DNA of 64,000 bases from NCBI GenBank assembly GCA_902591565.1, contig CACJBC010000001.1, positions 34,717 through 98,716 on the forward strand, in the 5' to 3' direction. This document shows, piece by piece, positions 20,249 to 34,676 of this stretch. Origin of the DNA: an uncultured SAR86 cluster bacterium (GTDB lineage: Bacteria > Pseudomonadota > Gammaproteobacteria > Magnimaribacterales > D2472). The notes under the pieces are model-generated. The model was not told the origin of the DNA. It worked only from the letters and a program-made list of their open reading frames with translations, and did no database searches. A program made the translations under genes and the position numbers. Numbering within the stretch: position 1 is the stretch's first letter; the number at the start of each line of letters is the position of its first letter.

Positions 20249-20727
20249 GTTTGTAATTTTGCTTTTAAAGCTTTTTCAACAACAGGATGAACAAACTTTG
20301 AAATATCACCTTTAAGATCAGATATCTCTTTTATCAAACTAGATGAAACATATATTAACGTTTCTTTCGGAGTTAAAAAAATACTTTCTATGTCAGGAGC
20401 AAGAGATCTATTCATGGTTGCTAATTGAAACTCATATTCAAAATCAGATACTGCCCTTAAGCCTCTAATAATTGCACAAGCATTATAATCCTTCGCTAAA
20501 TCAACTGTTAGCTTTCTTGGAAAACCTACAACCTCAACTTTATCATTGCCTTCATAAATTGATTTAGCTAAATTAATTCTATCTTCTAGAGTAAACATTG
20601 GGTTTTTAGCTTCACTTTTTGCAATAGCTACAACAACTTTATCGAAAAGGCCACACCCCCTTTCAATAATATCCATATGACCATATGTGATTGGATCAAA
20701 TGAACCAGGATAAATAGCAACTCTCAT
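20245..20727 (-). CDS. coaD: Phosphopantetheine adenylyltransferase
   Basis: YPGSFDPITYGHMDII nucleotidyltransferase motif; 160 aa. Confidence 0.9.
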   Translation of the reverse strand: MRVAIYPGSFDPITYGHMDIIERGCGLFDKVVVAIAKSEAKNPMFTLEDRINLAKSIYEGNDKVEVVGFPRKLTVDLAKDYNACAIIRGLRAVSDFEYEFQLATMNRSLAPDIESIFLTPKETLIYVSSSLIKEISDLKGDISKFVHPVVEKALKAKLQT

Positions 20728-20825
20728 TGTTAAATGATACTAAACAACAGCTTTTAAGCAACCACAATTAATAATACTAATATGAGGAAAATTGCAAGAA
20801 ACACAAAAAATAAAGTATTTCATAT

Positions 20826-20854
20826 TTGATACTAATGAATTTTTTATATATCAT
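20826..20854 (+). promoter_or_regulatory. Candidate sigma-70 promoter for proteorhodopsin (TTGATA-N17-TATCAT)
   Basis: Hexamers and 17-nt spacing were counted by hand. It is ~60 nt upstream of the ATG, and AGGAG lies just before the start. AT-rich DNA yields many chance matches. Confidence 0.3.
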
Positions 20855-20913
20855 CATAGGTTCATACTAACGGGGGAGTAATATTTTTACTCAAAAATAA
20901 ATAGGAGTTTAAT

Positions 20914-21660
20914 ATGAAATATTTATTAATCTTAGGTAGTGTTATTGCGCTTCCTTCTTTTGCTGCTAGTGGTGGCGACCTAGATGCTAGTGACTATACT
21001 GGTGTATCTTTTTGGTTGGTTACAGCAGCACTTTTAGCTTCAACTGTATTCTTTTTCATTGAAAGAGATAGAGTTTCAGCTAAATGGAAGACTTCATTAA
21101 CAGTATCTGGTCTTGTAACTGGTATAGCTTTTTGGCATTACCTTTATATGAGAGGTGTATGGGTAGAGACTGGTGAAACACCAACTGTATTTAGATACAT
21201 CGACTGGCTACTAACAGTACCTTTATTAATAGTTGAATTCTACTTAATTCTTGCAGCTGCTACCAATGTTGCTGGTTCTTTATTTAAGAAACTGCTTCTT
21301 GGTTCAATAGTAATGCTTGTTGCAGGGTATTTAGGTGAAGCAGGCGTATGGCCAGCTATGCCAGCATTCTTACTTGGAATGGCGGCTTGGATTTATATGA
21401 TTTATGAACTTTGGATGGGTGAAGGTAAAGCAGCCTGCAATACTGCAAGCCCAGCAGTTCAATCAGCATATAATGCAATGATGAAGATTATCATTGTTGG
21501 TTGGGCTATTTATCCTTTAGGATATGCTTCTGGCTATCTTATAGGAGATGGATCATCAGCTATGAACCTAAACTTAATATATAATCTTGCTGACTTTGTT
21601 AACAAGATTCTATTTGGTTTAATTATCTGGCATGTTGCCGTTAAAGAATCTAGTGCATAA
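20914..21660 (+). CDS. Proteorhodopsin, green-absorbing type (light-driven proton pump)
   Basis: Hand-numbered residues are H75, D97 (acceptor), L105 (tuning), E108 (donor), D227 and K231 (Schiff base, NKILFGL), plus a signal peptide. From memory, the sequence is near-identical to the archetypal SAR86 proteorhodopsin. Confidence 0.95.
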   Translation: MKYLLILGSVIALPSFAASGGDLDASDYTGVSFWLVTAALLASTVFFFIERDRVSAKWKTSLTVSGLVTGIAFWHYLYMRGVWVETGETPTVFRYIDWLLTVPLLIVEFYLILAAATNVAGSLFKKLLLGSIVMLVAGYLGEAGVWPAMPAFLLGMAAWIYMIYELWMGEGKAACNTASPAVQSAYNAMMKIIIVGWAIYPLGYASGYLIGDGSSAMNLNLIYNLADFVNKILFGLIIWHVAVKESSA

Positions 21661-21680
21661 GTAATAGATACTTAAAAAGT

Positions 21681-21706
21681 AAAACCCGGTTTATGCCGGG
21701 TTTTTT
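21681..21706. terminator. Bidirectional intrinsic terminator between proteorhodopsin and the convergent SDR gene
   Basis: AAAACCCGG-TTTATG-CCGGGTTTTTT: a GC stem flanked by an A-tract upstream and a T-tract downstream. It can therefore terminate transcription from both strands. Confidence 0.7.
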
Positions 21707-21727
21707 ATATAACAAACTTATAACAAT

Positions 21728-22450
21728 CTAGGGTGAAATAATTTCTCCGTCATAAGCTATTAGATTTCCTGAATTCTCTTTAGTTGCTTTTTCAATAACG
21801 TCTGACAGAAGTTCTCTGCTTTGCTCAGGGGAAAATAACTTACCTTTAGCTACATTCTTTTTGAAAGGCTCGCTTAGATTACTATCCACCGTTCCTGGTT
21901 GTAATCCTAATACCACTGCTTCAGGATTTGTTCTTTTTAATTCAATGCTAAAGTTTTTAATTATTTGATTTAGTGCTGTTTTGCTTGCTCTATATGAATA
22001 CCAGCCACCAAGTTTATTATCAGAAATACTACCTACTCTTGCACTCAAAAAAGCTAAGACAGACTTAGCATCTTTTCTTAGTAAAGGTATGAAATATCTT
22101 CCAATTAATGCAGGTCCAATGGTATTTACGGCCATAACTTTTGTCATAGTTGTAAAGTCTATTTCTTTAATGCTTTTTTCTGGTCCAAAATTTTCAGAGT
22201 GAAGAATTCCTGTGGCAACAATAATGGTATCAATAGGATAATCTTTTATGTTATGTGCAGCGTCCTCAATACTGGTTTGATTCTCAATATCTAGATCAAA
22301 ACTTTTTATTTTTCTGTTTTCAAAGCTTATTTTCTTTCTTGAAAATGCAAATACATTTTCTACTAATTCATCTTTTACATAATGCTCAAGAAAGGCTTTT
22401 CCAATAGCTCCCGTTGCACCTACTATTACTATATTTTTTTTAATTATCAT
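21728..22450 (-). CDS. Short-chain dehydrogenase/reductase (CsgA/C-factor-like SDR)
   Basis: IVIVGATGAIGKAF Rossmann motif and YRASKTALN (YxxxK); 240 aa. Confidence 0.7.
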   Translation of the reverse strand: MIIKKNIVIVGATGAIGKAFLEHYVKDELVENVFAFSRKKISFENRKIKSFDLDIENQTSIEDAAHNIKDYPIDTIIVATGILHSENFGPEKSIKEIDFTTMTKVMAVNTIGPALIGRYFIPLLRKDAKSVLAFLSARVGSISDNKLGGWYSYRASKTALNQIIKNFSIELKRTNPEAVVLGLQPGTVDSNLSEPFKKNVAKGKLFSPEQSRELLSDVIEKATKENSGNLIAYDGEIISP

Positions 22451-22483
22451 ATAAATATGTTTAGTTTTACTTTTTTAATAAAG

Positions 22484-23383
22484 CTAATTTGCTATTTTTT
22501 TTACGTTACTTGAGGCTACAAAATTTGAACCTTGAAGAAGCTCCTCTATGTTTTCTATAATTGTTTGCTTTACAGCTCTTACAATGGGATTAGATCTTGA
22601 AAGCTCATGTTGAATTAAATAAAAGCCTATTTTGAAAGAATACTCTTCCCTGCAATACACTTCCAATCTTGGATCATTATCGCCATCTAAATCGGTCAGG
22701 AATGTAGCTCCATTGCCAGAAGCGACAAAAGCATGAGCGTCTTGATATGAATTAGATGATATTATTACTTTAGGATTAGAAAAAAAACTATTAACAACAA
22801 AATCTGTATCCGATGAATCGTTTCTTTTGTAAGTAACCCATTCAAAATCATCAACATTTTTAATTTTCTTAAGATACTCTTTCGAAGCATAAATATGCAT
22901 ATTCATTTCACCAAGAAGGGTTGCTATTGAATCTTCAGGCGGACTGGTTGTACCAATAAATCCAATATCATACATCTCTGTAGTAAGGTCAGAAGAATCT
23001 GCATGATTCATTATATGGATATTCAAATTTGGATATTTTTTTCGAAGCTTGGTAATGATGTCCGTCATATTTTTACCACCCTCGCTTTGTTTATAAATAA
23101 CAAGCTTTCCATCCATCAAATCAGGATTAGGGATAAATCTTTCTTTTAGTGCAGATATTTTAAAATCAATTTTTTGGACTTCTTTATAAAGATCTTTGCC
23201 ATGAATAGTAAGCGCATAGCCAGAATTTCTCCTTTCAAATAATTTAATAGCTAATTCTTTTTCTAATTTTTCTATTTTTCTTGAAACGGTTGAGTGATTG
23301 ACTCCCATTTCTTTAGCACAGCCACTCAAGGTGCCATGATTTGCACATGAAATAAAATATTCTAAGTTTCCCCAATCGAGCAT
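22484..23383 (-). CDS. LysR-family transcriptional regulator
   Basis: N-terminal wHTH (GTLSGCAKEMGVNHSTVSRKIEKLEKEL) and a C-terminal substrate-binding domain. It is divergent from the sulfatase operon. Confidence 0.85.
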   Translation of the reverse strand: MLDWGNLEYFISCANHGTLSGCAKEMGVNHSTVSRKIEKLEKELAIKLFERRNSGYALTIHGKDLYKEVQKIDFKISALKERFIPNPDLMDGKLVIYKQSEGGKNMTDIITKLRKKYPNLNIHIMNHADSSDLTTEMYDIGFIGTTSPPEDSIATLLGEMNMHIYASKEYLKKIKNVDDFEWVTYKRNDSSDTDFVVNSFFSNPKVIISSNSYQDAHAFVASGNGATFLTDLDGDNDPRLEVYCREEYSFKIGFYLIQHELSRSNPIVRAVKQTIIENIEELLQGSNFVASSNVKKIAN

Positions 23384-23469
23384 TTGTAATTAATTATAAC
23401 TGTTTAAAATTGAACATAATATACTATGGCTGCTCAAATATAATCAATATATAAGCTCGAATTTGTTAT

Positions 23470-25140
23470 ATGAAGAATTCGATATTTAGATTAGACTCAA
23501 GTAATATGAAAAAAAATGTTTTGCTATATATTTTTCTGTTTCTTGTCATTACTGGATGGATATATAAACGAGAAATTGCTTTAACTCTTTTACCGATTGC
23601 TCTGAATATTAGCACCCCTATTGCAGATAATCAGGAAATTGAATGGCAAAAATCAGACTTTAAAAAAAATACAAATAAACCAAATATTATTCTTATTTTG
23701 GCAGATGACTTAGGCTTTAATGATGTTTCTTTCTACAATGGTGGGGCAGCAGATGGTAGCTTAATGACACCAAATATAGATCAGCTGGCAAAAGATGGTG
23801 TCGCATTTATGAATGGTTATGCAGCAAGTCCTGTTTGCTCGCCTTCAAGAGCTGCAATTATGACAGGAAGATATTCAAGTAGATATGGTTTTGAATTTAC
23901 GCCTTATCCTGCCTCAGCTGCAAGAATTATGAATATGTTAAGAAGAGATGGTGAGGTAGAAAATATTGAACTTGAAAATGTTCAATGGGATGAAGTTGGT
24001 TTAGCTATTGGAGGACTTCCAAACGAGGAAATAACCGTTGCAGAGTTACTAAAAGATAACGGTTATTATACTGCTCACATTGGTAAATGGCATTTAGGGG
24101 GATCTACAGATGGTATGAAACCAAATGACCAAGGTTTTGATGATAGCCTTAGGTTATATAGCAGCTTGTATCTTCCAAAAAATCATCCAGATGTAATTAA
24201 TGCAAAGATAGACTCTAGTGTTGAAGACATGATTTGGGCCTCCTCACAGTATGCAGCTGAATTTAACGGAAGTGAACCTTTTGAGCCTTCTGGATACATT
24301 ACAGATTACTATACAAATGAAACCATAAATGTAATTAACAATAATGCAGATAGACCTTTTTTTATTTATTTGGGTCATTTCGCACCTCATAATCCTCTTC
24401 AATCACTTAAAAAAGATTATGAAAAACATCAACATATGCAAAATCATACTCTTCAAGTTTATTCTGGAATGATAGAAGCACTTGATAGATCAGTTGGAAA
24501 AATAGTAAAAGCACTAGAAGAAAATGGGTTATCAGATAATACTCTAATAATCTTCACCTCAGATAACGGTGGGGCAGGATATATTGGATTACATGACATC
24601 AATAAGCCATATCGCGGTTGGAAACTTACTCATTTTGAAGGAGGAATGCACATCCCATTTTTTGCAAAATGGCCTGATAAAATTAAAAAAAATACCAAAT
24701 ATGATAAGAGAATTCATCATACTGATATATTCAGTACTATTCTTGGTGCAGCTGATATTGAACCACCGAAAAATATTCAAATAGATGGTAAAAATCTTAT
24801 TCCATATCTAACTGATGAGAAAATTGGAGAACCTCATGAAACCTTGTATTGGAAAAATGCATCCTATCAAGCAATTATTCATGATGATTGGAAATTAATG
24901 AGATCTCAATATCCAAAAAAGCAAGAGTATCTATTTGATTTAAAAAATGATCCATATGAAAAAAATAACCTTGCAAATGTTGAGATTGATATTAAAAACT
25001 CATTGCATCATATGATGGATAAGCATGTTGAATCTATGCCAAAACCCAAATGGCCACAATCAATTTTTATGCCAGTTACAATAGATAATCCAATCACAGA
25101 ATATAAAGAAGGTGATGAATTAATTTATTGGCCAAATTAA
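23470..25140 (+). CDS. Cys-type (formylglycine) sulfatase, membrane-anchored or secreted
   Basis: ILILADDLGFNDV metal-binding block and SPVCSPSRAAIMTGR (CxPxR FGly motif); GKWHLGG; TSDNGG. The N-terminal hydrophobic segment is VLLYIFLFLVITGWIY. An alternative start is at 23506. Confidence 0.85.
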   Translation: MKNSIFRLDSSNMKKNVLLYIFLFLVITGWIYKREIALTLLPIALNISTPIADNQEIEWQKSDFKKNTNKPNIILILADDLGFNDVSFYNGGAADGSLMTPNIDQLAKDGVAFMNGYAASPVCSPSRAAIMTGRYSSRYGFEFTPYPASAARIMNMLRRDGEVENIELENVQWDEVGLAIGGLPNEEITVAELLKDNGYYTAHIGKWHLGGSTDGMKPNDQGFDDSLRLYSSLYLPKNHPDVINAKIDSSVEDMIWASSQYAAEFNGSEPFEPSGYITDYYTNETINVINNNADRPFFIYLGHFAPHNPLQSLKKDYEKHQHMQNHTLQVYSGMIEALDRSVGKIVKALEENGLSDNTLIIFTSDNGGAGYIGLHDINKPYRGWKLTHFEGGMHIPFFAKWPDKIKKNTKYDKRIHHTDIFSTILGAADIEPPKNIQIDGKNLIPYLTDEKIGEPHETLYWKNASYQAIIHDDWKLMRSQYPKKQEYLFDLKNDPYEKNNLANVEIDIKNSLHHMMDKHVESMPKPKWPQSIFMPVTIDNPITEYKEGDELIYWPN

Positions 25141-25166
25141 ATTTACTAATTATTTGAGAGGAGTGA

Positions 25167-26234
25167 ATGAAAGTTTTAAGAACACCAGATGAATGTTTTA
25201 AAAATATAAAAGATTATCCATTTAATCCGGTTTATACAAATATAGAAACGAAAGATGGCACTATTTTGAGAATTCATCATATTGATGAAGGTCCTAAAGA
25301 TGGCCCTATCTTGCTAGCAATGCATGGTCAACCAGTATGGAGTTATCTTTATACCAGAATGATTCCAATCCTTACTCAAGCAGGAATAAGAGTAATAGCT
25401 CCAGACTTAGTTGGTTACGGAAAGTCAGATAAGCCAGCTACTAGAGAAGACTATTCTTATCAAAATCAAGTTGATTGGATGGGCGAATGGTTGAAAAAAA
25501 ATAATTTTCAAAATCTAAATTTTTTTGGACAAGACTGGGGTGGTTTAATTGGTTTAAGAATGATAGCAGCAGATCCGGATAGGTTTTTAAAAATTGCTAT
25601 GGGTAATACAGGTCTTCCATATAACCCTAATGCTCCTCAAGAAGTGATTGATGAAGTAAATGAATTTAGAGCATCGAATAAAAAGATAAGTTTCTTTGGA
25701 ATGATTAAAAATGTTAGCAAAATGGACAAAAACAAACACATGGCAACGAAATTTATGTACTGGCAAAAATTTACCTGGGATTCAAAAAATCTTCCAATTG
25801 GCTTAATTAATTCGTATCAAATGGAAAGTCAGTTTATGAAATCTCCGATCAAAGCATATATACATATTCTGTTACATAAAATAGGACTAGAAAAAATTTC
25901 ACCGTTTTATACTGATTTAATGAAAGCTTATGAAGCCCCCTTCCCAGATCCGTCATATAAAATGGGTCCTAGGGCAATGCCAAGTCAAGTTCCAATGATA
26001 CCTGATCAGTCTCTAGATGCTCAGAGAAAAGCAAGAGAGTTTTTTAAAACTTCCGATAAACCTTTTTTAGCTGTTTTTGCAGGCAATGATCCTGTGACAA
26101 ATGGGGCTGAGAAAGATATTCTTAGAATGGCTCCAAATGCAAAAAGTGCCCCTCATATTGGCGGAGGTCATTTTTTTCAATGGACTAAAGCAAAACCACT
26201 ATCTAAGATATTAATTGATTTTATAAAAGAGTAA
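25167..26234 (+). CDS. Haloalkane dehalogenase, HLD-I (DhlA-like)
   Basis: It aligns from memory along its length with Xanthobacter DhlA: [20 protein letters not shown] (DhlA HGEPTWSYLYRKMIP), nucleophile block [15 protein letters not shown] (DhlA YAAPFPDTSY), and C-terminal GGHF (catalytic His). The cap region is ~45 aa longer than in DhlA. Confidence 0.8.
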
Positions 26235-26239
26235 TATTT

Positions 26240-26923
26240 ATGATTCATTTGTATACAGCCTCAACACCTAACGGTCATAAAGTTTCTTGCTTGTTAGAGG
26301 CATTAGAAATGTCCTACGAAGTTCATTCAGTAAACCTTGCTGAAGGTGAACAAAAAAAACCTGAATTTTTAAAGATTAGTCCTAATGGCAGGATTCCAGC
26401 TATTGTAGATACTGAAAATGATAATCTTTCAATCTTTGAATCTGGAGCAATAATGCTCTATCTTGCAGAAAAGGCAGGAAAGCTTATCCCAAATGATGTT
26501 AAGGGAAGAGCAAAAGTTACTGAATGGCTTATGTTCCAAATGGGTGGCATCGGTCCAATGATGGGTCAAGCAAATGTTTTTTTTAGATATTTCCCTGAGA
26601 AAATTCAACCAGCAATAGATAGATATCAAAATGAATCACGGCGTCTTTTTGAGGTTTTAGATACTCATTTAGCTGACAATGAATGGTTAGCTGGAGAATA
26701 TTCCATTGCAGACATTGCTAACTGGTGCTGGGTTAGAACACATAATTGGTCAGGTGTATCAATTGATGGGCTAGCTCATTTAGAAGATTGGAAAAATAGA
26801 ATGTATGAGCAACCAGGAATGATTAAAGGAACTAAGGTTCCAGTTGATAGAGAAAGTATCTTAAAAAATAAAGAAGACGAAAAGGAATTTATAAAAAACG
26901 CACAAAAAATGGTAAAAAAATAA
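26240..26923 (+). CDS. Nu-class glutathione S-transferase (YfcG/YghU-like GSH-dependent disulfide reductase)
   Basis: [20 protein letters not shown]...[12 protein letters not shown]...[18 protein letters not shown] closely parallels E. coli YfcG (MIDLYFAPTPNGHKITLFLE...). Confidence 0.8.
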
Positions 26924-26934
26924 GGGGGAGTCTT

Positions 26935-27549
26935 ATGTTAAAAGTTTATTTTACACCTGGAACTAGAGCAGGAAGAGTAGTTTGGCTGCTCGAAGAATTA
27001 GGGTTAGATTACGATGTGAATATCTTGCCTTTTACAAAAGAGGGTTTGAAATCTCCTGAACATAGATCTAGGCACGCATTAGGTAGAGTACCAGTTCTTG
27101 AAGATGGTGGTATTTCCATATTTGAATCTGGAGCAATTATTCAATATATCCTCGAACGTCATAAAGATGGTGGTCTTAAACCTTCGACAGATTCAGAAGA
27201 GTTTCCATACTATCTTCAATGGTTTCATTATTGTGAAGGTATGGTTATGCCGCCAATGAATCAGGTTGTAGTTCAAACAGTTTTATTGCCACCTGATAGA
27301 AGAGATGAAAACGTTTTAAGGCAAGCGCAAAACTTAATAACCAAGTCTCTTGGTCCAGTTAATGATAATCTTGCTGATAAAGATTACTTAGTTGGTAATT
27401 TTTCTGCAGCCGATCTTATGCTTGGTCATTCATGCTTTATGGCCAATAGATTGGGGTGTGTTCCTGATGAAATGGAGCATATAAAAAATTATGTAGCTCG
27501 CATTGAAGCAAGGCCTGCATTTCAAAAAGCCATAACCTTAGGAGAATAA
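26935..27549 (+). CDS. Glutathione S-transferase
   Basis: GST N-domain ([24 protein letters not shown]) plus an alpha-helical C-domain. A strong SD (GGGGGAG) precedes the ATG. Confidence 0.75.
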   Translation: MLKVYFTPGTRAGRVVWLLEELGLDYDVNILPFTKEGLKSPEHRSRHALGRVPVLEDGGISIFESGAIIQYILERHKDGGLKPSTDSEEFPYYLQWFHYCEGMVMPPMNQVVVQTVLLPPDRRDENVLRQAQNLITKSLGPVNDNLADKDYLVGNFSAADLMLGHSCFMANRLGCVPDEMEHIKNYVARIEARPAFQKAITLGE

Positions 27550-27550
27550 T

Positions 27551-27964
27551 ATGGAATATAAAAATAGTGTTCATCCTACCAAAGAACAAATGGAAGGATT
27601 TCTTGAGGGTGACAATGAAGCACCTATCGCCATGCTGAATCTTTTGAAATTTAAAGAAAAAGCTGAATACGAGGATGGTCGAGATACTGATCTAACTGGC
27701 GAGCAAGCATATGCCATATATAGTGTAGAGGTTGTTGAACATTTAAAAAAAGTGGGTGGTAAAGTATCTTTTGGCGGGTCTATAAATCGCCTAATGCTTG
27801 GAGAAGCGGAAGAGCTTTGGGATGTAACTTTTATTGCTAAATATCCTAGCAAAAAGGCAATGCTCAAAATGATTACAGATCCTGACTATTTAGAAAGTAA
27901 TAAGCATAGAGTGGCAGGACTTGCAGGACAGCTTAATATCGAAGTTAAAGAATATAAATTTTGA
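27551..27964 (+). CDS. DUF1330 family protein (dimeric alpha/beta-barrel)
   Basis: 137 aa with a pattern typical of DUF1330 (IAMLNLLKFKE...GGKV...WDVTFIAKYPSKKAMLKM...Y). Function is unknown. Confidence 0.6.
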   Translation: MEYKNSVHPTKEQMEGFLEGDNEAPIAMLNLLKFKEKAEYEDGRDTDLTGEQAYAIYSVEVVEHLKKVGGKVSFGGSINRLMLGEAEELWDVTFIAKYPSKKAMLKMITDPDYLESNKHRVAGLAGQLNIEVKEYKF

Positions 27965-27983
27965 AACAATTCCAAACAGTAAG

Positions 27984-29018
27984 ATGACTGAAAAAATAAA
28001 AGTCTTTGGAGCAACACCCTCTCCTTATACACATAAAATGATTTCTATTTTAAGGTATCGACAAATTCCATATGAAGCATATATGGGAGATGTTGTAGGA
28101 AGATTAAAAAAATTAAATATTGAGCCGCCACAACCAGTTTTGCTCCCAACTATATTATTAAAAGATGAAGCCAACAATTTAATTCCAACCACGGACTCTA
28201 CTCCTATTATAAGAAGATTAGAAAAAGAGTATTCTGAGAGAAAATTACTACCAGATGACCCTGCGCTTTCCTTTATAAACTATTTACTAGAAGATTTTGG
28301 CGATGAATGGGTCACTAAATATATGTTTCACTTTAGATGGTACTTTGAAGAAGATTCAGATAATGCCGGTACAATCCTGCCTTTAGTTGATCTTGGCACT
28401 GATACACCTGATGAAGCACTCATAGAATTTAAAAAATTTATCTCAAATAGACAAATTGAAAGACTATGGGTTGTTGGCTCTAACGATATAACAGCTGGTT
28501 TAATTGATTCTAGTTTTAGAAGATTTGTGAAACTTATGGATAATCATTTATCAGCAAGTAAATTTCTTTTTGGTGAAAAGCCCTCTTCTGCCGATTTTGC
28601 TTTTTATGGTCAGTTGACTCAGCTTATTGGATTTGATCCAACTTCAAGAAAAATAGTTTATGACTCATCTAAAAGATTAATTGCTTGGGTTGATGTAATG
28701 GCTGATCTTTCAGGTCATGATGTAAACAATTGTAAATGGACGGTTCTTGAAGATAGTCCAGAGACTTTAAAAGAACTTCTCAAAGAATTTGGGAAAATGT
28801 ATGTGCCTACATTGGTTGCAAACGCGGAGGCAAAAAACTCTGGAAATGAGACATGGGAAATTGAAATAGATGGTTCGATATGGAAACAAAAGACATTCTC
28901 ATATCAAGCTAAATGTTTAGAGTGGATAAAAGATGAGTTTAATGTGTTAAATGATCATGATAAAAAAAGAGTGATGAAATATCTTGATGGAACAGGGTGT
29001 GAAAAAATCTTAGGATAA
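27984..29018 (+). CDS. Long GST-fold protein (thioredoxin-like N-domain with SPY motif plus extended C-domain)
   Basis: KVFGATPSPYTHKMISILRY, TDSTPIIRRLE and SSADFAFYGQL resemble GST_N/GST_C elements. The ATG at 27984 follows the DUF1330 stop by 19 nt and is preferred to the TTG at 27921, which would overlap DUF1330. Confidence 0.5.
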   Translation: MTEKIKVFGATPSPYTHKMISILRYRQIPYEAYMGDVVGRLKKLNIEPPQPVLLPTILLKDEANNLIPTTDSTPIIRRLEKEYSERKLLPDDPALSFINYLLEDFGDEWVTKYMFHFRWYFEEDSDNAGTILPLVDLGTDTPDEALIEFKKFISNRQIERLWVVGSNDITAGLIDSSFRRFVKLMDNHLSASKFLFGEKPSSADFAFYGQLTQLIGFDPTSRKIVYDSSKRLIAWVDVMADLSGHDVNNCKWTVLEDSPETLKELLKEFGKMYVPTLVANAEAKNSGNETWEIEIDGSIWKQKTFSYQAKCLEWIKDEFNVLNDHDKKRVMKYLDGTGCEKILG

Positions 29019-29022
29019 TAAT

Positions 29023-29835
29023 ATGAAAATAAAAGATAAAAGAATTGTTGTAACTGGTGCCGCTAGCGGTATTGGCTTAGCGCTATGTGAAGAATTTCAT
29101 GCAAGTGGAGTCAAGTCAATTGTCTGTGTTGATATAAATGAAGATGGTGCAAGGAGTATTGCAGAAAAAGTTAATGGAATTGCTATAGCTGCTGATGTGT
29201 CTAGTGAAAAAGATATTATTAATGTGATTGAAAAAGCAAATGAATATTCTGGAGGAATTGATATATTTTGTTCGAATGCTGGAGTTGGTGGTGCTCCAAT
29301 GTTTTTAGAAACAACATCTGAAGAATGGAATAGCACATGGAGTATAAACGTAATGTCTCATGTTCATGCTGCAAAACATGTATTACCTCAAATGCTTGAA
29401 AGAGGTGAAGGCTATTTAATGAATACAGCATCAGCTGCAGGTTTGTTATCACAAATAGGTGCAGCTCAGTATGCTGTTACTAAATCAGCGGCAGTAAGTT
29501 TTGCTGAGTGGATAAAAATTACTTATGGCCAAAAAGGTATTGGTGTTTCCTGTCTTTGCCCTCAAGCTGTGAGAACTGCTATGACTGCTCAAGGTGCCGG
29601 AGTTGCAGGAGTGGATGGAATGCTTGAACCAGATGTGGTTGCTAAAGATGTTTTAGACGCAATTGAAAAGGAAAGATTTTTAGTCTTGCCTCATAAAGAA
29701 GTTGGCGAATATGTGCAAAGAAAAGGTAATGACAGAGATAGATGGATAGCCGGTATGCAAAGACTGCAAACACAATATGAAGATTTTTATGAAAACTGGG
29801 TTAGTGGAAATAAAGGAGAAAATAATGAAAACTAA
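29023..29835 (+). CDS. Short-chain dehydrogenase/reductase
   Basis: VVTGAASGIGLA (TGxxxGxG), NAG, and YAVTKSA (YxxxK). Confidence 0.8.
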   Translation: MKIKDKRIVVTGAASGIGLALCEEFHASGVKSIVCVDINEDGARSIAEKVNGIAIAADVSSEKDIINVIEKANEYSGGIDIFCSNAGVGGAPMFLETTSEEWNSTWSINVMSHVHAAKHVLPQMLERGEGYLMNTASAAGLLSQIGAAQYAVTKSAAVSFAEWIKITYGQKGIGVSCLCPQAVRTAMTAQGAGVAGVDGMLEPDVVAKDVLDAIEKERFLVLPHKEVGEYVQRKGNDRDRWIAGMQRLQTQYEDFYENWVSGNKGENNEN

Positions 29836-30793
29836 AATTACAGAACTATTTGGAATTGAGAATCCTATTATTCAAGGTGGTATGCATCATGTAGGTTTTG
29901 CTGAACTTGCTGCAGCTGTTTCTAACGCTGGCGGCCTTGGAACTATTACCGGCTTAACCCAAGGAACTCCTGAAAAATTAGCTAACGAAATTGCTAGATG
30001 TAAAGAAATGACAGATAAGCCTTTTGCTGTGAATTTAACCTTTCTTCCATCTTTGACGCCTCCAGATTATCCTGGATTAATTAAAGAAATAATCGATGCA
30101 GGTGTCCCAGTGGTCGAAACTGCTGGAAGAAACCCTGCTGAATATTTGCCTGCATTAAAAGATGCTGGGATAAAAGTTATTCATAAGTGTACTTCTGTAA
30201 GACACTCTATAAAAGCTCAATCAATTGGTTGTGATGCTGTATCAGTTGATGGTTTTGAATGTGGCGGTCACCCAGGCGAAGATGATATTCCAAATTTTAT
30301 TTTACTACCAAGAGCAGCAGAGGAATTAGAAATTCCGTTTGTTGCCTCAGGCGGTATGGCTGACGGAAGAAGTTTAGTTGCTGCTATGGCTCTTGGAGCA
30401 GAAGGAATGAATATGGGAACAAGATTTATAGCAACGCAAGATGCACCTGTTCATCAAAATGTTAAAGAAGCTATTGTTAACGCAACTGAACTGGATACTC
30501 GATTAATTATGAGATCATTAACAAACACTGAAAGAGTTCTTAATAATGAAGCAGTAGAAAGACTCATGGAAAAAGAAAAAGCATTAGGTGATGATTTAAA
30601 ATTCGAGGATATCATTGACGAAGTTGCCGGAGTTTATCCAAAAATTATGCATGAAGGAACAATGGAGGCTGGAGCTTGGTCTTGTGGAATGGTTGCTGGG
30701 CTCGTGAATGATATTCCAACAGTCCAGGACTTAATAAACAATATTATGTCCCAGGCTGATGAAATAATTAAATCAAAGCTACAAAATTTCTAA
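29825..30793 (+). CDS. Nitronate monooxygenase / 2-nitropropane dioxygenase family FMN oxidoreductase (FabK-like fold)
   Basis: ENPIIQGGMHHVGFAELAAAVSNAGGLGTI, GFECGGH, and ASGGMADGRS...GAEGMNMGTRF. The ATG at 29825 is preceded by AAGGAG and overlaps the SDR end by 11 nt. The track's upstream start (29777) is unlikely. Confidence 0.75.
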   Translation: MKTKITELFGIENPIIQGGMHHVGFAELAAAVSNAGGLGTITGLTQGTPEKLANEIARCKEMTDKPFAVNLTFLPSLTPPDYPGLIKEIIDAGVPVVETAGRNPAEYLPALKDAGIKVIHKCTSVRHSIKAQSIGCDAVSVDGFECGGHPGEDDIPNFILLPRAAEELEIPFVASGGMADGRSLVAAMALGAEGMNMGTRFIATQDAPVHQNVKEAIVNATELDTRLIMRSLTNTERVLNNEAVERLMEKEKALGDDLKFEDIIDEVAGVYPKIMHEGTMEAGAWSCGMVAGLVNDIPTVQDLINNIMSQADEIIKSKLQNF

Positions 30794-30796
30794 GAT

Positions 30797-31993
30797 TTAT
30801 TTTTTATAATTTGCAGCTTCTTCTGATCCGTCAGTTGCTGTTCCTTTGGTATAAGAGTGAGCTCCCATTCCTGCAAGATCTCCGTCTTTGACAATTAAGT
30901 ATGGTTCCCTAATTGGTTCGCCGGCAAAGAAGCACTCTAGTATTTCTCTGACACCAGCAGCATACCTAGCTTGTGCAGACAATGAGGTTCCAGACGTATG
31001 AGGAGTCATGCCATGGTTAGGCATTGTCCTCCAAACATGATCATTGGGGGCTGGTTGTGGAAACCAAACATCACCAGCATAGCCACTTAACTGACCTGAC
31101 TCTAGAGCTCTAGCTATTGCATCTTTATCACATATCTTTCCTCTAGCGGTGTTAACTATATATGCTCCCCTTTTCATCTTGTTAATCATTTCATCATCAA
31201 ATAAATGTTCTGTTTTTGGATGAAGCGGACAATTAATAGTAACAACATCACATACTGAGACTAAAGATTCTACTGATTCGTGATAAGTTAAATTTAATTC
31301 TTGTTCAACTTCATCTGACAATCTATGTATATCAAAATAATGAAGATGTACATCAAATGGTTTCATCTTTCTTAAAGCATCTATACCAATTCTTCCAGCA
31401 GCAACTGTTCCAATATGCATTCCTTCAACATCATAAGATCTTTGTACGGCATCAGCTATATTCCAACCGCCCTCATTAACAATTCTATGCTGGTTGTGGT
31501 AATCCCTTACCATTGAAAGAATCATCATGACAATATGCTCCGCAACTGATCTTGAATTACAGTAAGTCACTTCCACAACATCAATGTTGTGATCCATAGC
31601 TCCTTGAAGATCAACGTGATCTGAGCCTATCCCAGCTGTTATTGCCATCTTAAGGTTTGGTGCAGATTCCATCTTTTCACGAGTCAAATAATATGGGAAG
31701 AAAGGTTGAGAAATTACAATGTCAGCATCAACTAATTCCCTATCTGCTTCACATCCCTCACCATCTTTATCTGATGTAACAACTAGTGTATGTCCAGCAT
31801 CTTCCAGAAATTTTCTAAGCCCTAGTTCACCAGATACACATCCAAGAAGTTCTCCTGGTGTAAAATCAATTGCTTTTGGAGATGGCAAAGTCATGCCATC
31901 TGGATATTTGTCTATTTTTGGTAAATCGTCTCTAGCATACGTACTAGGCATACCGGTTTTTGGATCATCGTATAAAACACATAATATCTTCAT
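30797..31993 (-). CDS. fdh: NAD-dependent formate dehydrogenase (metal-independent, D-2-hydroxyacid dehydrogenase superfamily)
   Basis: It aligns end-to-end from memory with Pseudomonas sp. 101 FDH: KILCVLYDDP, YARDDLPKID, AIDFTPGELLG.VSGELGLRK, TAGIGSDHVDL, GTVAAGRIG, NTARGK, GYAGDVWFPQPAP, and GAHSY.KG.ATDGSEEAA. Confidence 0.95.
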   Translation of the reverse strand: MKILCVLYDDPKTGMPSTYARDDLPKIDKYPDGMTLPSPKAIDFTPGELLGCVSGELGLRKFLEDAGHTLVVTSDKDGEGCEADRELVDADIVISQPFFPYYLTREKMESAPNLKMAITAGIGSDHVDLQGAMDHNIDVVEVTYCNSRSVAEHIVMMILSMVRDYHNQHRIVNEGGWNIADAVQRSYDVEGMHIGTVAAGRIGIDALRKMKPFDVHLHYFDIHRLSDEVEQELNLTYHESVESLVSVCDVVTINCPLHPKTEHLFDDEMINKMKRGAYIVNTARGKICDKDAIARALESGQLSGYAGDVWFPQPAPNDHVWRTMPNHGMTPHTSGTSLSAQARYAAGVREILECFFAGEPIREPYLIVKDGDLAGMGAHSYTKGTATDGSEEAANYKK

Positions 31994-32071
31994 AATCTTC
32001 CCCTTTATGTAAATAATTCACCTTTTACTAGAACAGAAATTATTTAAAAAAACAAGAAAAATATATAGAAG

Positions 32072-33019
32072 TTAGGCTTTGATTAGAGGATTATGCTTCA
32101 CTTTATCTGGTATATCTTCTGCACCTGGAACACCTCTTGCAATTAGGAAAGGTCTTAGAGCTTCAACTGCCTTGGGCTCATCATAATGACCAATTCCTGG
32201 ATGAAGATGATGTATAAAGTGAAGTTGCATTGAATGATTTAAATATCTAGGCATCCAATGGCTCCAAAATCTTGTATCTTTATATCTTCCTGTTTCAGTT
32301 TGATAATGAGGATACCAGCTGAAAAAGACTGAAAGATAAATAACTCCAAACTTACTTGGCAGCCACCATAATAAAAGTGTCTCTAAAGGAAAAAATACAA
32401 CTAAAGTTAAAAGAATTACTCTATATAACACTCCTATATTCAAACCTTTATTAAACGATTTCATAAATGCTTTATCATTTTCATAGATTTTAGCTATTGC
32501 TTGGTATTTAGATATGCCTGCTTGAGTGGCAACAATAACCTCCCAAAGAGATTTAGCAGATGCAGTATCATGATCTGGGTCTTTTTCTGGATTATTCGTA
32601 TAAGCATGATGCTTCATATGAGTAGCTCTCATCACATCATGAGGAAACATAAGAGTTATTAATGTGTAATGGCTTACGAATGAATCGATCCAACGTCTTT
32701 TTGGATTGCCTCTAGAATAATTACCATGCTGTGCTTCATGCGAAGGCAGGTATGCAAAACAGGCACAAATAGTTGCAATTACAAAACCAAGTAATAAAGA
32801 AATATACCCATTAATAACTAATGGCCAAAGAGAAAGCCAAACCGTTGCTTGACCAACTCCGATTAAGATCATCTCCCATTGAAATCTTTTTGAGAAACTT
32901 CTAGCGATCTCTTTTTCTTTTTCAAAGGAAAATTCTTCTGAAATCTTTTCTAGATTTTCCATAACCATGTTCCTCTTATCTTTGCTATGAGGCCAAGACA
33001 TAAACCTAATATGTAACAA
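32072..33019 (-). CDS. Membrane di-iron fatty-acid desaturase / CrtW-like ketolase-hydroxylase family protein
   Basis: Three His boxes (HEAQH, HMKHHAYTNNPEKDPD, HFIHHLH) and four or more TM helices. The box-2 context resembles CrtW (HMAHHRHAGTDDDPDF). The probable start is MVMENLEK at 32968/32962 rather than 33019. Substrate is unknown. Confidence 0.6.
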   Translation of the reverse strand: MLHIRFMSWPHSKDKRNMVMENLEKISEEFSFEKEKEIARSFSKRFQWEMILIGVGQATVWLSLWPLVINGYISLLLGFVIATICACFAYLPSHEAQHGNYSRGNPKRRWIDSFVSHYTLITLMFPHDVMRATHMKHHAYTNNPEKDPDHDTASAKSLWEVIVATQAGISKYQAIAKIYENDKAFMKSFNKGLNIGVLYRVILLTLVVFFPLETLLLWWLPSKFGVIYLSVFFSWYPHYQTETGRYKDTRFWSHWMPRYLNHSMQLHFIHHLHPGIGHYDEPKAVEALRPFLIARGVPGAEDIPDKVKHNPLIKA

Positions 33020-33253: not shown

Positions 33254-34081
33254 TTACTGAAAAATATCCAGATTTCTTACTAAGCTTTTTATGCTTAGAG
33301 TCTTTTCGTCATGTTTTGAGGTTTCAACAAGACATTGTCTCCATATGTAGTCTAAAAAATAAGTAAATTTGACCCAGTTTTTTAATTTTTCTGTTTCTAA
33401 TTGAAAATCTTCCTTATAGCCATTTAATAAATAACCAATCTCTTCGTTATTAAGATTATAGGAAGATATTATTGATGCTATATCAAAATAAGGACTATTA
33501 GCTGATGCGTATTCCCAATCTATAAAAAAATGTTTTTTATTCCAAAAAATATTTTCAGGATTCAAATCATTATGAGAAAAAATTAGGGATTCATTTCTGT
33601 CCAAAATAGAATCGAAAATTTTAAAGCCATGATTCAAATACCAATCATCTTTAATTTTGTTTTTAAGAATATCTCTATAATTTTCTATAGCATTTTCAAA
33701 ATTATTAATTTCAACATTATTAATTTTTATTTCATGAACTTTTTTAATTTCTTTTCCTAAAGAAATTAAACTTTCTTTTTTTTTAATTTCTGAATTTGAA
33801 ATTTTTTTTCCCTCACTGAATTTTCTTATTAGGATTCCATTGTCAAAATCATGATATAAAATATTTTGATTTCTGATTTCTGTTTCTAAAAATTTAAGTA
33901 TTTGCCATTCAGAAACTCTTCGCTTTTTTAACCAATTTGGTAGATCAATATCAACCCTTATTACAGATTTAATATCATTAAAATTACAAAGAAAAGTTTG
34001 CGAAATAAGATCAATTTTTATAGGTGAAATAATTTCAATTTTTTCATCTATCGAAGCAATTTGTTTATCAATTTTAGGCAT
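33254..34081 (-). CDS. Choline-kinase/APH-fold kinase, thiamine kinase (ThiK/YcfN)-like
   Basis: Brenner/APH motifs SHNDLNPENIFW (HxDxxxxN) and IDWEYA. It is 275 aa (E. coli ThiK is ~274 aa). It is the last gene of a TPP-riboswitch operon and overlaps the PnuC-like gene by 8 nt. Confidence 0.55.
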   Translation of the reverse strand: MPKIDKQIASIDEKIEIISPIKIDLISQTFLCNFNDIKSVIRVDIDLPNWLKKRRVSEWQILKFLETEIRNQNILYHDFDNGILIRKFSEGKKISNSEIKKKESLISLGKEIKKVHEIKINNVEINNFENAIENYRDILKNKIKDDWYLNHGFKIFDSILDRNESLIFSHNDLNPENIFWNKKHFFIDWEYASANSPYFDIASIISSYNLNNEEIGYLLNGYKEDFQLETEKLKNWVKFTYFLDYIWRQCLVETSKHDEKTLSIKSLVRNLDIFQ

Positions 34082-34676
34082 CGATTTTGTCTTTCATTTC
34101 AGTCCAAGATTTATAACCAAAATAAATAATTATTAAGTACACAAAAAATAATAATGAAGTTAAAAATAGTCCCCTTGAATAAAATAAAAATACAGAAACT
34201 GCGTCTATTACAAACCAATAAATCCAATTTTCTAAAAGCCTCTTTGCAACCATATAAGTTGTTACAATCGCTCCCCAGGTTGTCAGCGAATCAATAAAAG
34301 GTAAGGCGGCATTTGTAAAATTTTCAAGAGCCCATCCTGATGTTAGTGCTAATAAAAAGATTAACGAAATTGCTTTGATGTGTTGATTTCTATTCCACGT
34401 TTTTACGAGAAATTTTGAATTGTCCGGTAAAGATTTTCTCCACTGTGTCCACCCATAAACAGCCATAATACAATAAAATATTTGCAAGCCTGCTTCCATA
34501 TATAGACCTGCTGAATACATTACAAAGAAATATAAAAAAGAACTAATAAAAGCGGCAAACCAACAACTTATGTTCTGTTTTACTGCTAATAGTAAATAGG
34601 CAATTGCAAGAATAACGGCAGTAGGTTCTATCCAGCTAGTATTGATAAGATTAGAAATCATATCTAACTGTAACAC
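34074..34676 (-). CDS. PnuC-family transporter, predicted thiamine-type (PnuT)
   Basis: 200 aa, ~7 TM helices, PnuC-like YGWTQW motif. It is co-transcribed with a TonB receptor behind a THI-box. Confidence 0.7.
   Translation of the reverse strand: MLQLDMISNLINTSWIEPTAVILAIAYLLLAVKQNISCWFAAFISSFLYFFVMYSAGLYMEAGLQIFYCIMAVYGWTQWRKSLPDNSKFLVKTWNRNQHIKAISLIFLLALTSGWALENFTNAALPFIDSLTTWGAIVTTYMVAKRLLENWIYWFVIDAVSVFLFYSRGLFLTSLLFFVYLIIIYFGYKSWTEMKDKIDA

Follow-up and report, generated by a model that had tools for sequence, protein, structure and literature searches.

An eight-gene block of a SAR86 bacterium as a possible version of a glutathione-centred, modular marine gene cluster

In the window analysed here, a stretch of 64,000 nucleotides from an uncultured SAR86 cluster bacterium, a compact block of genes raises the question of whether its members form a single functional unit and, if so, which chemistry this unit supports. 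The original prediction saw in it a LysR-controlled regulon stripping sulfate and halide from algal metabolites and oxidising the products. Regarding gene anatomy, its description holds. Eight same-strand genes (forward strand) span positions 23470-30793, with spacings of 26, 5, 11, 1, 19 and 4 nt and a single 11-nt overlap, coordinates and spacings being identical to those claimed, and a LysR-family regulator gene (22484-23383, reverse strand; HTH_1 and LysR_substrate domains) indeed lies divergently upstream. The Shine-Dalgarno-like sequences described as strong are present ahead of four starts, namely those of the haloalkane dehalogenase, HLD (GAGAGGAG), of the 204-aa glutathione transferase, GST204 (AGGGGGAG), of the DUF1330-type protein (TAGGAG) and of the NMO-family protein (AAGGAG). 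The 86-bp divergent intergenic region (23384-23469) presumably harbours promoter and operator; scans for consensus promoters and terminators were uninformative in this AT-rich DNA. That all else in the window is housekeeping is only roughly correct, given the presence in the flanks of a formate-dehydrogenase-like gene, a fatty-acid desaturase, a TonB-receptor/PnuC/kinase set and an MFS transporter. The window showed neither a dedicated inner-membrane transporter nor a sulfatase-maturing enzyme.

The two hydrolases heading the block are of the predicted families. The first gene (23470-25140, forward) encodes a formylglycine-type (S1) sulfatase with an N-terminal membrane anchor (PF00884, E 1.7e-57), whose expected catalytic residues are present, C123-S-P-S-R127 and D79-D80 being kept in 33 of 33 cluster homologues. 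A hydrophobic segment can be read from the translation at about residues 16-32, and the enzyme, judging from its sequence, probably faces the periplasm. As SAR86 has neither sulfate uptake nor assimilatory reduction (PMC3358033), it is unlikely to serve sulfur assimilation. The second gene (25167-26234, forward) encodes an HLD-I haloalkane dehalogenase of the alpha/beta-hydrolase type, which scores 323.7 bits against the subfamily model NF002043 (cutoff 265) and retrieves DccA, DpcA and DmrA from the PDB with E 1e-73 to 1e-76. Its expected catalytic residues are in place, D123, W124, W199, D308 and H335 being kept in 27-29 of 29 homologues, and with its AF2 model (pLDDT 76.5) the best 50 Foldseek matches are all HLDs. 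The cap region (154-252) is enlarged, being about 60 aa longer than that of DccA.

Domain searches revealed GST folds in three of the eight proteins. GST227 (26240-26923, forward; 227 aa, GST_N/GST_C domains) is a Nu-class, YfcG-like glutathione transferase, scoring under cutoff against the YfcG and YghU NCBIfam models (186 and 169 bits), with PDB matches to 4eci (E 5e-87), YfcG (3gx0, E 8e-52) and 5uun (E 6e-35), the last of which we take to be NaGSTNu; the TPNGHK motif is aligned in this comparison. GST204 (26935-27549, forward), a second cytosolic enzyme with GST_N/GST_C domains, has generic GST matches only in the PDB. It is followed by the DUF1330-type protein (27551-27964, forward), which falls just short of the Pfam threshold (22.3 bits against 23) and is clearly homologous to the DUF1330-type structure RPA0582 (3dca, E 1.8e-25). 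The third GST-fold protein, GSTL344 (27984-29018, forward), has weak GST_N_3/GST_C matches and an additional C-terminal region of about 95 residues; its ATG start gives 344 aa, with which homologue lengths agree. Its homologues form 1885 representative clusters at E<=1e-3, and S13 and P14 are invariant in 49 diverse ones. With the AF2 model of GSTL344 (pLDDT 74), the top Foldseek matches are StyI (9qd3) and 4kf9, the TM-score to the StyI/IsoI type being about 0.5/0.68 at 18% identity, and the sole NCBIfam match is IsoI, at 32 bits against a cutoff of 300. Sequence and model thus place GSTL344 nearest, though only distantly, to the epoxide-opening StyI/IsoI type. The proposal of a DcmA-type GST was not borne out, no such enzyme being found among the best matches in NCBIfam (three GSTs), the PDB (GST227, GST204 and a GSTL344 profile) or Foldseek (GSTL344).

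Two redox enzymes close the block. SDR2 (29023-29835, forward) is a classical SDR oxidoreductase (adh_short, E 5e-42) for which the PDB search found no close solved structure, and its stop overlaps the start of the NMO-family gene (29825-30793, forward; PF03060), whose product has 322 aa, as in homologues. Called a nitronate monooxygenase in the original prediction and by Pfam, the latter matches PA1024 of Pseudomonas aeruginosa (2gjl/6e2a) over its full length with 362 bits (E 3e-107), well beyond FabK (about 190 bits) or genuine NMOs (about 95 bits), and this name needs correcting. PA1024 is an NADH:quinone oxidoreductase (PMC10033279), and we name the window protein a PA1024-type FMN NADH:quinone oxidoreductase (NQO). 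The SDR2-NQO pair recurs in L005-L007, L063, L076, L085 and L088 and looks like a separable module. A further SDR on the other side of the LysR gene, SDR1 (21728-22450, reverse; adh_short), falls within the coordinates of the original prediction; all SAR86 relatives seen have it beside or close to the gene for rhodopsin, whatever follows, and this synteny suggests that it probably belongs with proteorhodopsin and not with the operon.

A conserved neighbourhood was proposed as support for one functional unit, and the conservation found is stronger than expected, spanning two proteobacterial classes despite a shuffled gene order. Indeed, among 82 loci anchored on GSTL344, from SAR86, Pelagibacterales, Halieaceae, Porticoccaceae and PS1-type Alphaproteobacteria, the sulfatase, DUF1330, Nu-class GST, NMO-family reductase, HLD, an MBL hydrolase, DsbA-like proteins and small membrane proteins recur. 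Counted within 10 kb in this non-random sample, in which many loci lie on incomplete contigs and counts are lower bounds, the sulfatase, the NMO family and the MBL hydrolase each occur in 32 of the 82 loci, DUF1330 in 31 (with a membrane-anchored paralogue in 20 further loci), HLD in 26, and GST227 and DsbA-like proteins in 25 each, GST204 being restricted to SAR86, where 11 of 21 loci have it. Same-strand runs include at least two other window families in 32/82 loci and at least three in 21/82, stop/start codon overlaps are frequent, and SAR86E has a 14-gene same-strand array with all eight window families. The wider surroundings have links to lipids, with acyl-CoA synthetase, acyl-CoA dehydrogenases and an alkenal-reductase-like MDR found repeatedly and, when representative sequences are read, a patatin-like protein and a crotonase as well. 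We found no published description of this recurring gene set. By sequence comparison, a modular cluster appears to be common to abundant marine Gamma- and Alphaproteobacteria, including SAR11. As a conserved unit, the exact set of eight does not stand: in close relatives DUF2855 or one more GST joins it, or the sulfatase is relocated, replaced or lost, being absent from one of them (L088-L090). HLD is found within 10 kb in none of nine SAR11 loci, and it is chiefly in SAR86 that the cluster has gained a dehalogenase.

The place given to LysR also needs correction. LysR is adjacent here, without an assigned NCBIfam equivalog, and the closest SAR86 relatives (L005, L006, L085-L090) retain the divergent arrangement, making it a plausible local regulator of the operon. 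Across the 82 loci, TetR occurs in 34 and LysR in 4; from these sequences, TetR seems to be the usual cluster regulator and LysR specific to the window's SAR86 subclade.

We tentatively favour the reading that the eight genes are one operon, with which this SAR86 bacterium would carry its own version of a modular, glutathione-centred cluster that strips leaving groups (sulfate, halide and perhaps epoxide) from lipid-like electrophiles and oxidises the resulting products. The membrane-anchored sulfatase, probably facing the periplasm, would take off sulfate esters, and the cytoplasmic HLD-I with its enlarged cap would turn carbon-halogen bonds into alcohols. GSTL344, as a putative Ser-type enzyme, might conjugate glutathione to an electrophilic carbon, for instance of an epoxide or an activated halide, the SDR would oxidise the alcohols formed, and the Nu-class GST, perhaps with GST204, would take the glutathionyl group off again. 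The PA1024-type flavoprotein may reduce quinones or re-oxidise NADH, DUF1330 having a presumed accessory role. Substrates would likely be natural lipid-like electrophiles, either sulfated, halogenated or epoxidised, and expression would probably be under the divergent LysR here and under TetR in other lineages. Against a lipid substrate, the sulfatase's nearest solved structures are the S1_19 carrageenan sulfatases 6prm/9hh3, that is, carbohydrate and not lipid sulfatases. The distance of GSTL344 from StyI/IsoI likewise speaks against the scheme, as does the fact that neither a dedicated transporter nor a maturing enzyme for the sulfatase was seen.

Because the content is modular, with sulfatase loss, SAR11 loci devoid of HLD and a separable SDR2-NQO pair, the set could also be a battery of independent enzymes. 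In this somewhat unlikely alternative, GSTs, quinone reductase, carbonyl and alkenal reductases, hydrolases and DJ-1 would be co-regulated without forming a pathway, as in phase-II detoxification regulons, and would shield a sunlit rhodopsin-bearing cell from quinones, lipid-peroxidation products, algal aldehydes and organohalides. Variable membership and the presence of a PA1024-type quinone reductase agree with such a general defence, as do the DJ-1/PfpI, alkenal-reductase-like MDR, DsbA/kappa-GST-like, MAPEG and beta-lactamase-fold proteins of related loci, together with the further GSTs and nitroreductase recognised there by reading sequences; stress regulons are, moreover, typically under TetR or LysR. 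However, a membrane-anchored sulfatase whose start overlaps the stop of DUF2855 (SAR86) or DUF1330 (Halieaceae), and which is thus translationally coupled to them, fits it poorly. The recurrence of DUF1330, DUF2855 and three small membrane proteins, all families of unknown function, alongside beta-oxidation-type genes suggests a specific metabolic flow, and streamlined SAR11 and SAR86 genomes would not obviously retain 6-14 genes for non-specific defence.

That sulfatase and HLD share one molecule, in a linear catabolism of compounds both halogenated and sulfated (chlorosulfolipid-type sulfated haloalkanes) or of polyhalomethanes, is improbable. The two enzymes do share an operon here and in SAR86E, L005, L007, L009 and L085, the enlarged cap could take bulky or long-chain substrates, and lipid-catabolic genes lie nearby in relatives; yet each of the two enzymes also occurs without the other, the sulfatase in SAR11 clusters and HLD in L088-L090 and L063, the GST searches described above gave no DcmA-type best match, and no computed result points to a particular compound. 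Polyhalomethanes and chlorosulfolipids as substrates are pure speculation. Accidental adjacency, with unrelated accessory genes of a flexible genomic island read through from one promoter, would account for the allele mosaicism of L005/L006 (GSTL344 71% and sulfatase 49% identical, neighbouring genes 86-98%) and for the insertions and deletions between close relatives. It is nevertheless very unlikely and largely refuted by cross-lineage conservation, since neither chance nor an island confined to one lineage would yield families co-localised in Alpha- and Gammaproteobacteria with differing order and overlapping frames; base composition, at 0.33-0.38, also exceeds the mean of the window (about 0.31) only slightly.

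How does the favoured glutathione-centred operon compare with known systems? The window HLD has in common with DccA (5esr), DpcA (6f9o), DmrA (4mj3) and DhlA the fold, the Asp-His-Asp triad and the Trp beside the nucleophile. Characterised HLD-I enzymes are about 35% identical to it over the whole model alignment and align throughout its N-terminal 153 residues (E about 1e-56), whereas its cap cannot be aligned to theirs, no solved enzyme of this cap length being found among PDB sequence and Foldseek matches, and its genomic context differs. Similarly, the predicted PA1024-type gene overlaps an SDR gene within a GST/dehalogenase operon, unlike PA1024. In the Lin pathway, by which Sphingobium japonicum UT26 degrades gamma-hexachlorocyclohexane, LinB likewise serves as haloalkane dehalogenase, LinC as SDR, LinD as GST-type dehalogenase and LinR as LysR-type regulator. 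LinB is, however, an HLD-II, in contrast to the window HLD-I with its enlarged cap. The lin genes lie scattered and are not known to include a sulfatase, their substrate is anthropogenic and cyclic, and NCBIfam family searches detected no lin homology for the window proteins.

Closer in chemical logic is the Lig beta-aryl-ether pathway of sphingomonads (LigD-type SDRs, LigE/F GST etherases, NaGSTNu), in which an SDR makes a carbonyl beside the leaving group, a GST displaces this group with glutathione and a Nu-class GST, a glutathione lyase, frees GSSG (PMC5892560). No LigE/F-type etherase was identified in the window block, the proposed leaving groups are sulfate or halide instead of aryloxide, and the hosts are marine oligotrophs. 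An unusual GST, an unlike GST and an SDR come together, as in the window, in the isoprene isoGHIJ genes of Rhodococcus AD45 and the styrene styGHIJ genes of Gordonia rubripertincta CWB2, and to our knowledge both clusters are without sulfatase and dehalogenase. Neither enzyme figures in their description in PMC8552685, according to which an epoxide-opening GST (IsoI/StyI) conjugates glutathione to an electrophilic carbon, an SDR oxidises the conjugate and an unlike Ure2p/Nu-like GST (Ure2p/beta-like) is proposed to remove glutathione. The likeness lies in GSTL344, through its StyI and IsoI matches, and in the Nu/Ure2p-related GST227; the window block has no monooxygenase or CoA-transferase genes, and GSTL344 differs from IsoI/StyI by its low identity and its C-terminal region. 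The block is best read as a variation on glutathione-dependent clusters already known from detoxification or catabolism.

The eight plus-strand genes at 23470–30793, which encode a sulfatase, a haloalkane dehalogenase (HLD), GST227 and GST204 (two GSTs named by their length), a DUF1330 protein, the 344-aa GST-like protein GSTL344, an SDR (SDR2) and a flavoprotein of the NMO family, form a cluster that is real and conserved well beyond SAR86. GSTL344 was used as the anchor of the survey: with an alignment of 49 diverse homologues as the query, one genome per species was scanned, giving 80 loci with 10-kb flanks to which four metagenomic loci were added (family counts are out of 82 loci), and families were assigned by tblastn with the window proteins and by all-against-all clustering of 1,492 ORFs. 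The same families recur near GSTL344 in SAR86, Pelagibacterales single-cell genomes, Halieaceae (OM60/NOR5), Porticoccaceae/SAR92-type bacteria and PS1-type Alphaproteobacteria. Within 10 kb were found TetR regulators (34/82 loci), sulfatases (32/82, plus seven of a second type), NMO/FabK-family proteins (32/82), a membrane-anchored MBL hydrolase (32/82), DUF1330 (31/82, plus 20 with a membrane-anchored paralogue), HLD (26/82), GST227 and a DsbA/HCCA-isomerase-like protein (25/82 each), three types of small membrane proteins (18–20/82 each), acyl-CoA dehydrogenases (16/82), DUF2855 (12/82) and GST204 (11/82), all these counts being lower bounds since many contigs are truncated. At least two other window families share a same-strand run with GSTL344 in 32 of the 82 loci, and at least three in 21.

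The order of the genes is far less stable. The long array of SAR86E reads TetR(-), then NMO-GSTL344-HLD-GST227-GST204-DUF1330-DUF1330-u157TM-DUF2855-Sulf-u125TM-MBL-SDR2-NMO, and the SAR11 order is Sulf-MBL-u125TM-DJ1-TetR(-), then FabK-like-u157TM-DUF1330-GST227-GSTL344-DsbA(+). The start of the sulfatase gene is overlapped by the stop of DUF2855 in SAR86 or of DUF1330 in Halieaceae. The original prediction had proposed to look for synteny across related genomes; in this 82-locus survey the families do co-occur, with their order shuffled, a positive outcome for that check.

Within the window, the ORF list recovered the predicted gene set and its tight packing, with spacings of 26, 5, 11, 1, 19 and 4 nt and one 11-nt overlap when GSTL344 and the last gene start at the ATG codons 27984 and 29825, two starts that agree with the lengths of their homologues (344 and 322 aa). 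Shine-Dalgarno-like sequences precede several of the operon starts, as had been claimed, and the assignments of the sulfatase, the dehalogenase, three GST-fold proteins, the SDR and the NMO-family flavoprotein agree with Pfam and NCBIfam. Named homologues identify the host as SAR86. On the minus strand lie the LysR gene (22484–23383) and SDR1 (21728–22450), a second SDR beside the proteorhodopsin gene. In scans of 20600–32200, promoter-like sites were fewer than in shuffled sequences and terminators were not significantly enriched, such scans being uninformative in AT-rich DNA. As to a foreign origin of the cluster, base composition is only slightly raised there, which makes no case for a recent transfer.

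The surrounding DNA holds further features. The rhodopsin and SDR1 genes converge on a GC-rich hairpin with a perfect 9-bp stem and T-runs (AAAACCCGG...CCGGGTTTT, 21681–21704), likely a bidirectional terminator. Convergent with the operon, the two stop codons lying just 3 nt apart, a minus-strand gene (30797–31993) encodes a 398-aa protein of the D-2-hydroxyacid dehydrogenase family that we read as an NAD-dependent formate dehydrogenase and that is present in close relatives (L005, L088), not beyond. It adjoins a fatty-acid-desaturase-family gene (32072–33019, minus strand) conserved in the same two loci. Further on, a TonB-dependent receptor, a PnuC-type transporter and a choline-kinase/APH-like kinase are encoded in tandem (33254–36744, minus strand), a set whose synteny extends to L005 and, in part, to L007 and which resembles a unit for the salvage of vitamins or nucleosides.

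Among the closest relatives, whose HLDs are 86–93% identical, the cluster undergoes rapid remodelling. Loci L085, L005 and L006 share the order HLD-GST227-(extra GST)-GST204-DUF1330-DUF2855-Sulf-GSTL-SDR2-NQO, NQO being the last gene of the operon, and the sulfatase-first order of the window was seen in no other locus retrieved. Loci L088–L090 are devoid of the sulfatase and carry between DUF1330 and GSTL344, at the DUF2855 and sulfatase site of their relatives, a 61-aa ORF (10792–10977) that is possibly a deletion scar. When L005/L006 are compared with window positions 23470–29018, most proteins are 86–98% identical while GSTL344 falls to 71% and the sulfatase to 49%; this disparity implies a replacement of alleles or paralogues inside an otherwise near-identical cluster. 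The window sulfatase shares 80% identity with its L007 counterpart. Among the surveyed loci, GST204 is limited to SAR86.

Regulation varies as well. LysR, the presumed regulator of the operon, is tied to the subclade of the window, in which the divergent LysR–operon junction is kept (window, L005, L006 and L085–L090 only; behind LysR, a TonB-dependent receptor gene is often found); elsewhere the junction is absent and TetR is found instead. The katG-adjacent LysR of locus L002 is a different protein from the operon LysR. SDR1, which lies within the coordinates of the original prediction, is a C-factor-type SDR; in all SAR86 relatives examined its gene adjoins that of proteorhodopsin or lies close to it (20914–22450 in the window; also L002, L007, L085 and L088). 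It tracks rhodopsin and is best treated as separate. As SAR86 has been reported to lack retinal biosynthesis (PMC3358033), SDR1 might interconvert scavenged retinol and retinal.

The dehalogenase passes the curated haloalkane-dehalogenase subfamily model NF002043 (323.7 bits, cutoff 265), it lies nearest, among solved structures, to DccA, DpcA and DmrA of the HLD-I subfamily (E 1e-73 to 1e-76), and its AF2/AlphaFold model (pLDDT 76.5) has an alpha/beta-hydrolase core with a helical cap for which the top 50 Foldseek matches in the PDB are all HLDs, the HLD-I enzymes DccA, DmrA, DpcA and DhlA being the best. Aligned with DccA/DpcA, the catalytic triad consists of D123 (nucleophile), H335 (base) and D308 (acid after strand 7), conserved in 29/29, 28/29 and 27/29 cluster homologues, respectively. 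W124, after the nucleophile, matches the halide-stabilising Trp, and these four residues are kept in 27–29 of the 29 homologues. Homology and modelling agree with the predicted dehalogenase, probably an HLD-I family member with its catalytic residues in place. The cap region (154–252) is about 60 residues longer than that of DccA, with which it does not align; because of this enlargement, W199 of the cap is invariant (29/29) but pairs with the DccA cap Trp only in a non-significant alignment segment. Some clusters contain a second dehalogenase-like alpha/beta-hydrolase (L009, 8953–9984; L023, 13834–14859) that has a hydrophobic segment at its N terminus and carries HGNP...GQDWGG...GHF motifs, and some SAR86 and PS1 genomes therefore hold two dehalogenase-type genes.

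The sulfatase (PF00884, E 1.7e-57) has a hydrophobic anchor at its N terminus and bears the signature C123-S-P-S-R127 which, together with the metal-site residues D79-D80, is kept in 33/33 cluster homologues. Its nearest solved structures are S1_19 carrageenan sulfatases (243 bits), steryl-sulfatase scoring lower (166 bits), and it reaches no NCBIfam equivalog. No FGE/anSME-type maturation enzyme was noticed among the conserved neighbour families, a non-exhaustive view with about one third of the window ORFs annotated. SAR11 is known to be devoid of sulfate uptake and assimilation. For SAR86, both sulfate uptake and assimilatory reduction have been reported to be missing (PMC3358033), and sulfur scavenging is hence an unlikely role for the sulfatase.

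Regarding the GST-fold proteins, GST227 is a Nu-class, YfcG-like GST whose glutathione-binding motif TPNGHK (residues 9–14) aligns to 4eci; its PDB matches are 4eci (E 5e-87), YfcG (E 8e-52), YghU (E 6e-36) and 5uun (E 6e-35), which we take to be NaGSTNu, and it stays below the NCBIfam YfcG equivalog (186 bits, cutoff 332). GST204 is a generic cytosolic GST according to a PDB sequence search. The GSTL344 family counts 1885 representative clusters at E<=1e-3, and S13-P14 is invariant in the alignment of the 49 homologues, as would suit a conjugating GST of the Ser type. Foldseek searches with its model (pLDDT 74) returned the styrene-oxide-opening GST StyI as best match (TM 0.50/0.66–0.69, 18% identity), then the uncharacterised 4kf9, and its sole NCBIfam match is IsoI, at 32 bits for a cutoff of 300; these values amount to a resemblance only, and GSTL344 is not retained as an IsoI/StyI-type epoxide-opening GST. 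Its last ~95 residues have no match. As to the DcmA-type GST once envisaged, none of the three GST-fold proteins has such an enzyme among its best matches in the searches run (NCBIfam, PDB, Foldseek). On a contig binned to Bacteroidota (L016, from a MAG labelled Cryomorphaceae), a GSTL344 homologue 53–54% identical was found, which could reflect horizontal transfer or a binning error.

The DUF1330 protein is marginal against PF07045 (22.3 bits, gathering score 23); its similarity to the solved homologue RPA0582 (3dca/3hhl, E 1.8e-25) and homologues annotated PF07045 speak for this predicted assignment. DUF1330 also has a membrane-anchored paralogue, u210TM (BLASTP E 1e-9), in Halieaceae/Porticoccaceae (e.g., L081, 16489–17121); this protein of 210 aa is hydrophobic at both ends, and it tends to appear in lineages whose soluble DUF1330 is rarer in the cluster. 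The last gene, initially called a nitronate monooxygenase, is far closer to PA1024 (362 bits) than to FabK (~190 bits) or the genuine NMOs 4q4k and 3bw2 (74–95 bits), and nitronate detoxification is rejected as its role; PA1024 is an NADH:quinone oxidoreductase (PMC10033279).

The putative function of the cluster is mechanistically constrained, and we tentatively favour, at a little under even chances, the operon being the local form of a sequential glutathione-centred system, with an order of steps that we infer. The anchored sulfatase, predicted to face the periplasm, would strip sulfate, and the long-cap HLD, presumably cytoplasmic, would hydrolyse carbon–halogen bonds. GSTL344 would add glutathione to an electrophilic carbon, SDR2 may oxidise the alcohols formed and the Nu-class GST227, by analogy, would take glutathione off again, which is the role of NaGSTNu in the Lig pathway (PMC5892560) and the one proposed for StyJ/IsoJ (PMC8552685). 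The PA1024-type enzyme may deal with quinones or NADH balance. Genes for an acyl-CoA synthetase, acyl-CoA dehydrogenases and an alkenal-reductase-like MDR recur nearby in related loci, as do, by reading of representative sequences, patatin-like, saccharopine-dehydrogenase-like and crotonase genes, which suggests that the substrates are lipid-like.

Other readings have to be weighed. That the genes are adjacent by chance is highly improbable: membership persists while gene order differs across lineages, the classic signature of functional coupling. That SAR86, SAR11, OM60/NOR5 and SAR92-type bacteria all keep a 6–14-gene cluster points towards a widespread class of substrates or stresses that has no name so far. 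An electrophile-defence battery whose enzymes act non-sequentially has a minority chance, second to that of the favoured system. The specific version of the original prediction, a pathway for substrates both halogenated and sulfated, has a sulfatase and an HLD in one operon on its side; against it stands the distribution of HLD, present in 19/21 SAR86 loci and in 0/9 SAR11 loci, and we consider this version improbable. A minority chance also goes to a broader speculation, an unrecognised ocean-wide glutathione-dependent pathway (SAR11, SAR86, OM60/NOR5, SAR92-type, PS1) that would mineralise a common class of sulfated, halogenated or epoxidised lipid-like algal metabolites. Its new enzyme types would be GSTL344 with its C-terminal extension, DUF1330, DUF2855, the long-cap HLD-I and the three small membrane proteins and, if true, it would give the most abundant heterotrophs a part in the turnover of organosulfates and organohalogens in the sea.

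The cluster supplies genomic context and testable roles for the orphan families DUF1330, DUF2855 and GSTL344 (~1,900 representative clusters), and opens a way into the natural turnover of organohalogens and organosulfates in seawater. With cultured carriers in existence (Luminiphilus sp. nBUS_07, locus L048; Congregibacter variabilis IMCC43200, L044; Pseudohalioglobus sediminis NY5, L024; and HTCC2207, L083), the question is experimentally tractable.

Full-text literature on SAR86/SAR11 with these enzymes, DUF1330 and DUF2855 gave no description of the cluster, term matches being unrelated. No alkene monooxygenase or CoA-transferase gene was found among the annotated window-region genes, the Pfam-annotated related loci or the conserved neighbour families examined; without these genes, and with the IsoI model at 32 bits for a cutoff of 300, the whole cluster is not an Iso/Sty epoxide pathway. 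Nor is it a Lin- or DcmA-type system, neither homology being detected in the searches run. The HLD-I with long cap, the S1 sulfatase, the Nu-GST and the PA1024-type NQO all fall into known families, as ordinary members or as variants. The cluster belongs to none of its nearest analogues by the features tested; these are the isoprene and styrene epoxide clusters that depend on glutathione, the Lig beta-etherase pathway and the Lin pathway, the last of which combines an HLD, an SDR, a GST and a LysR regulator.
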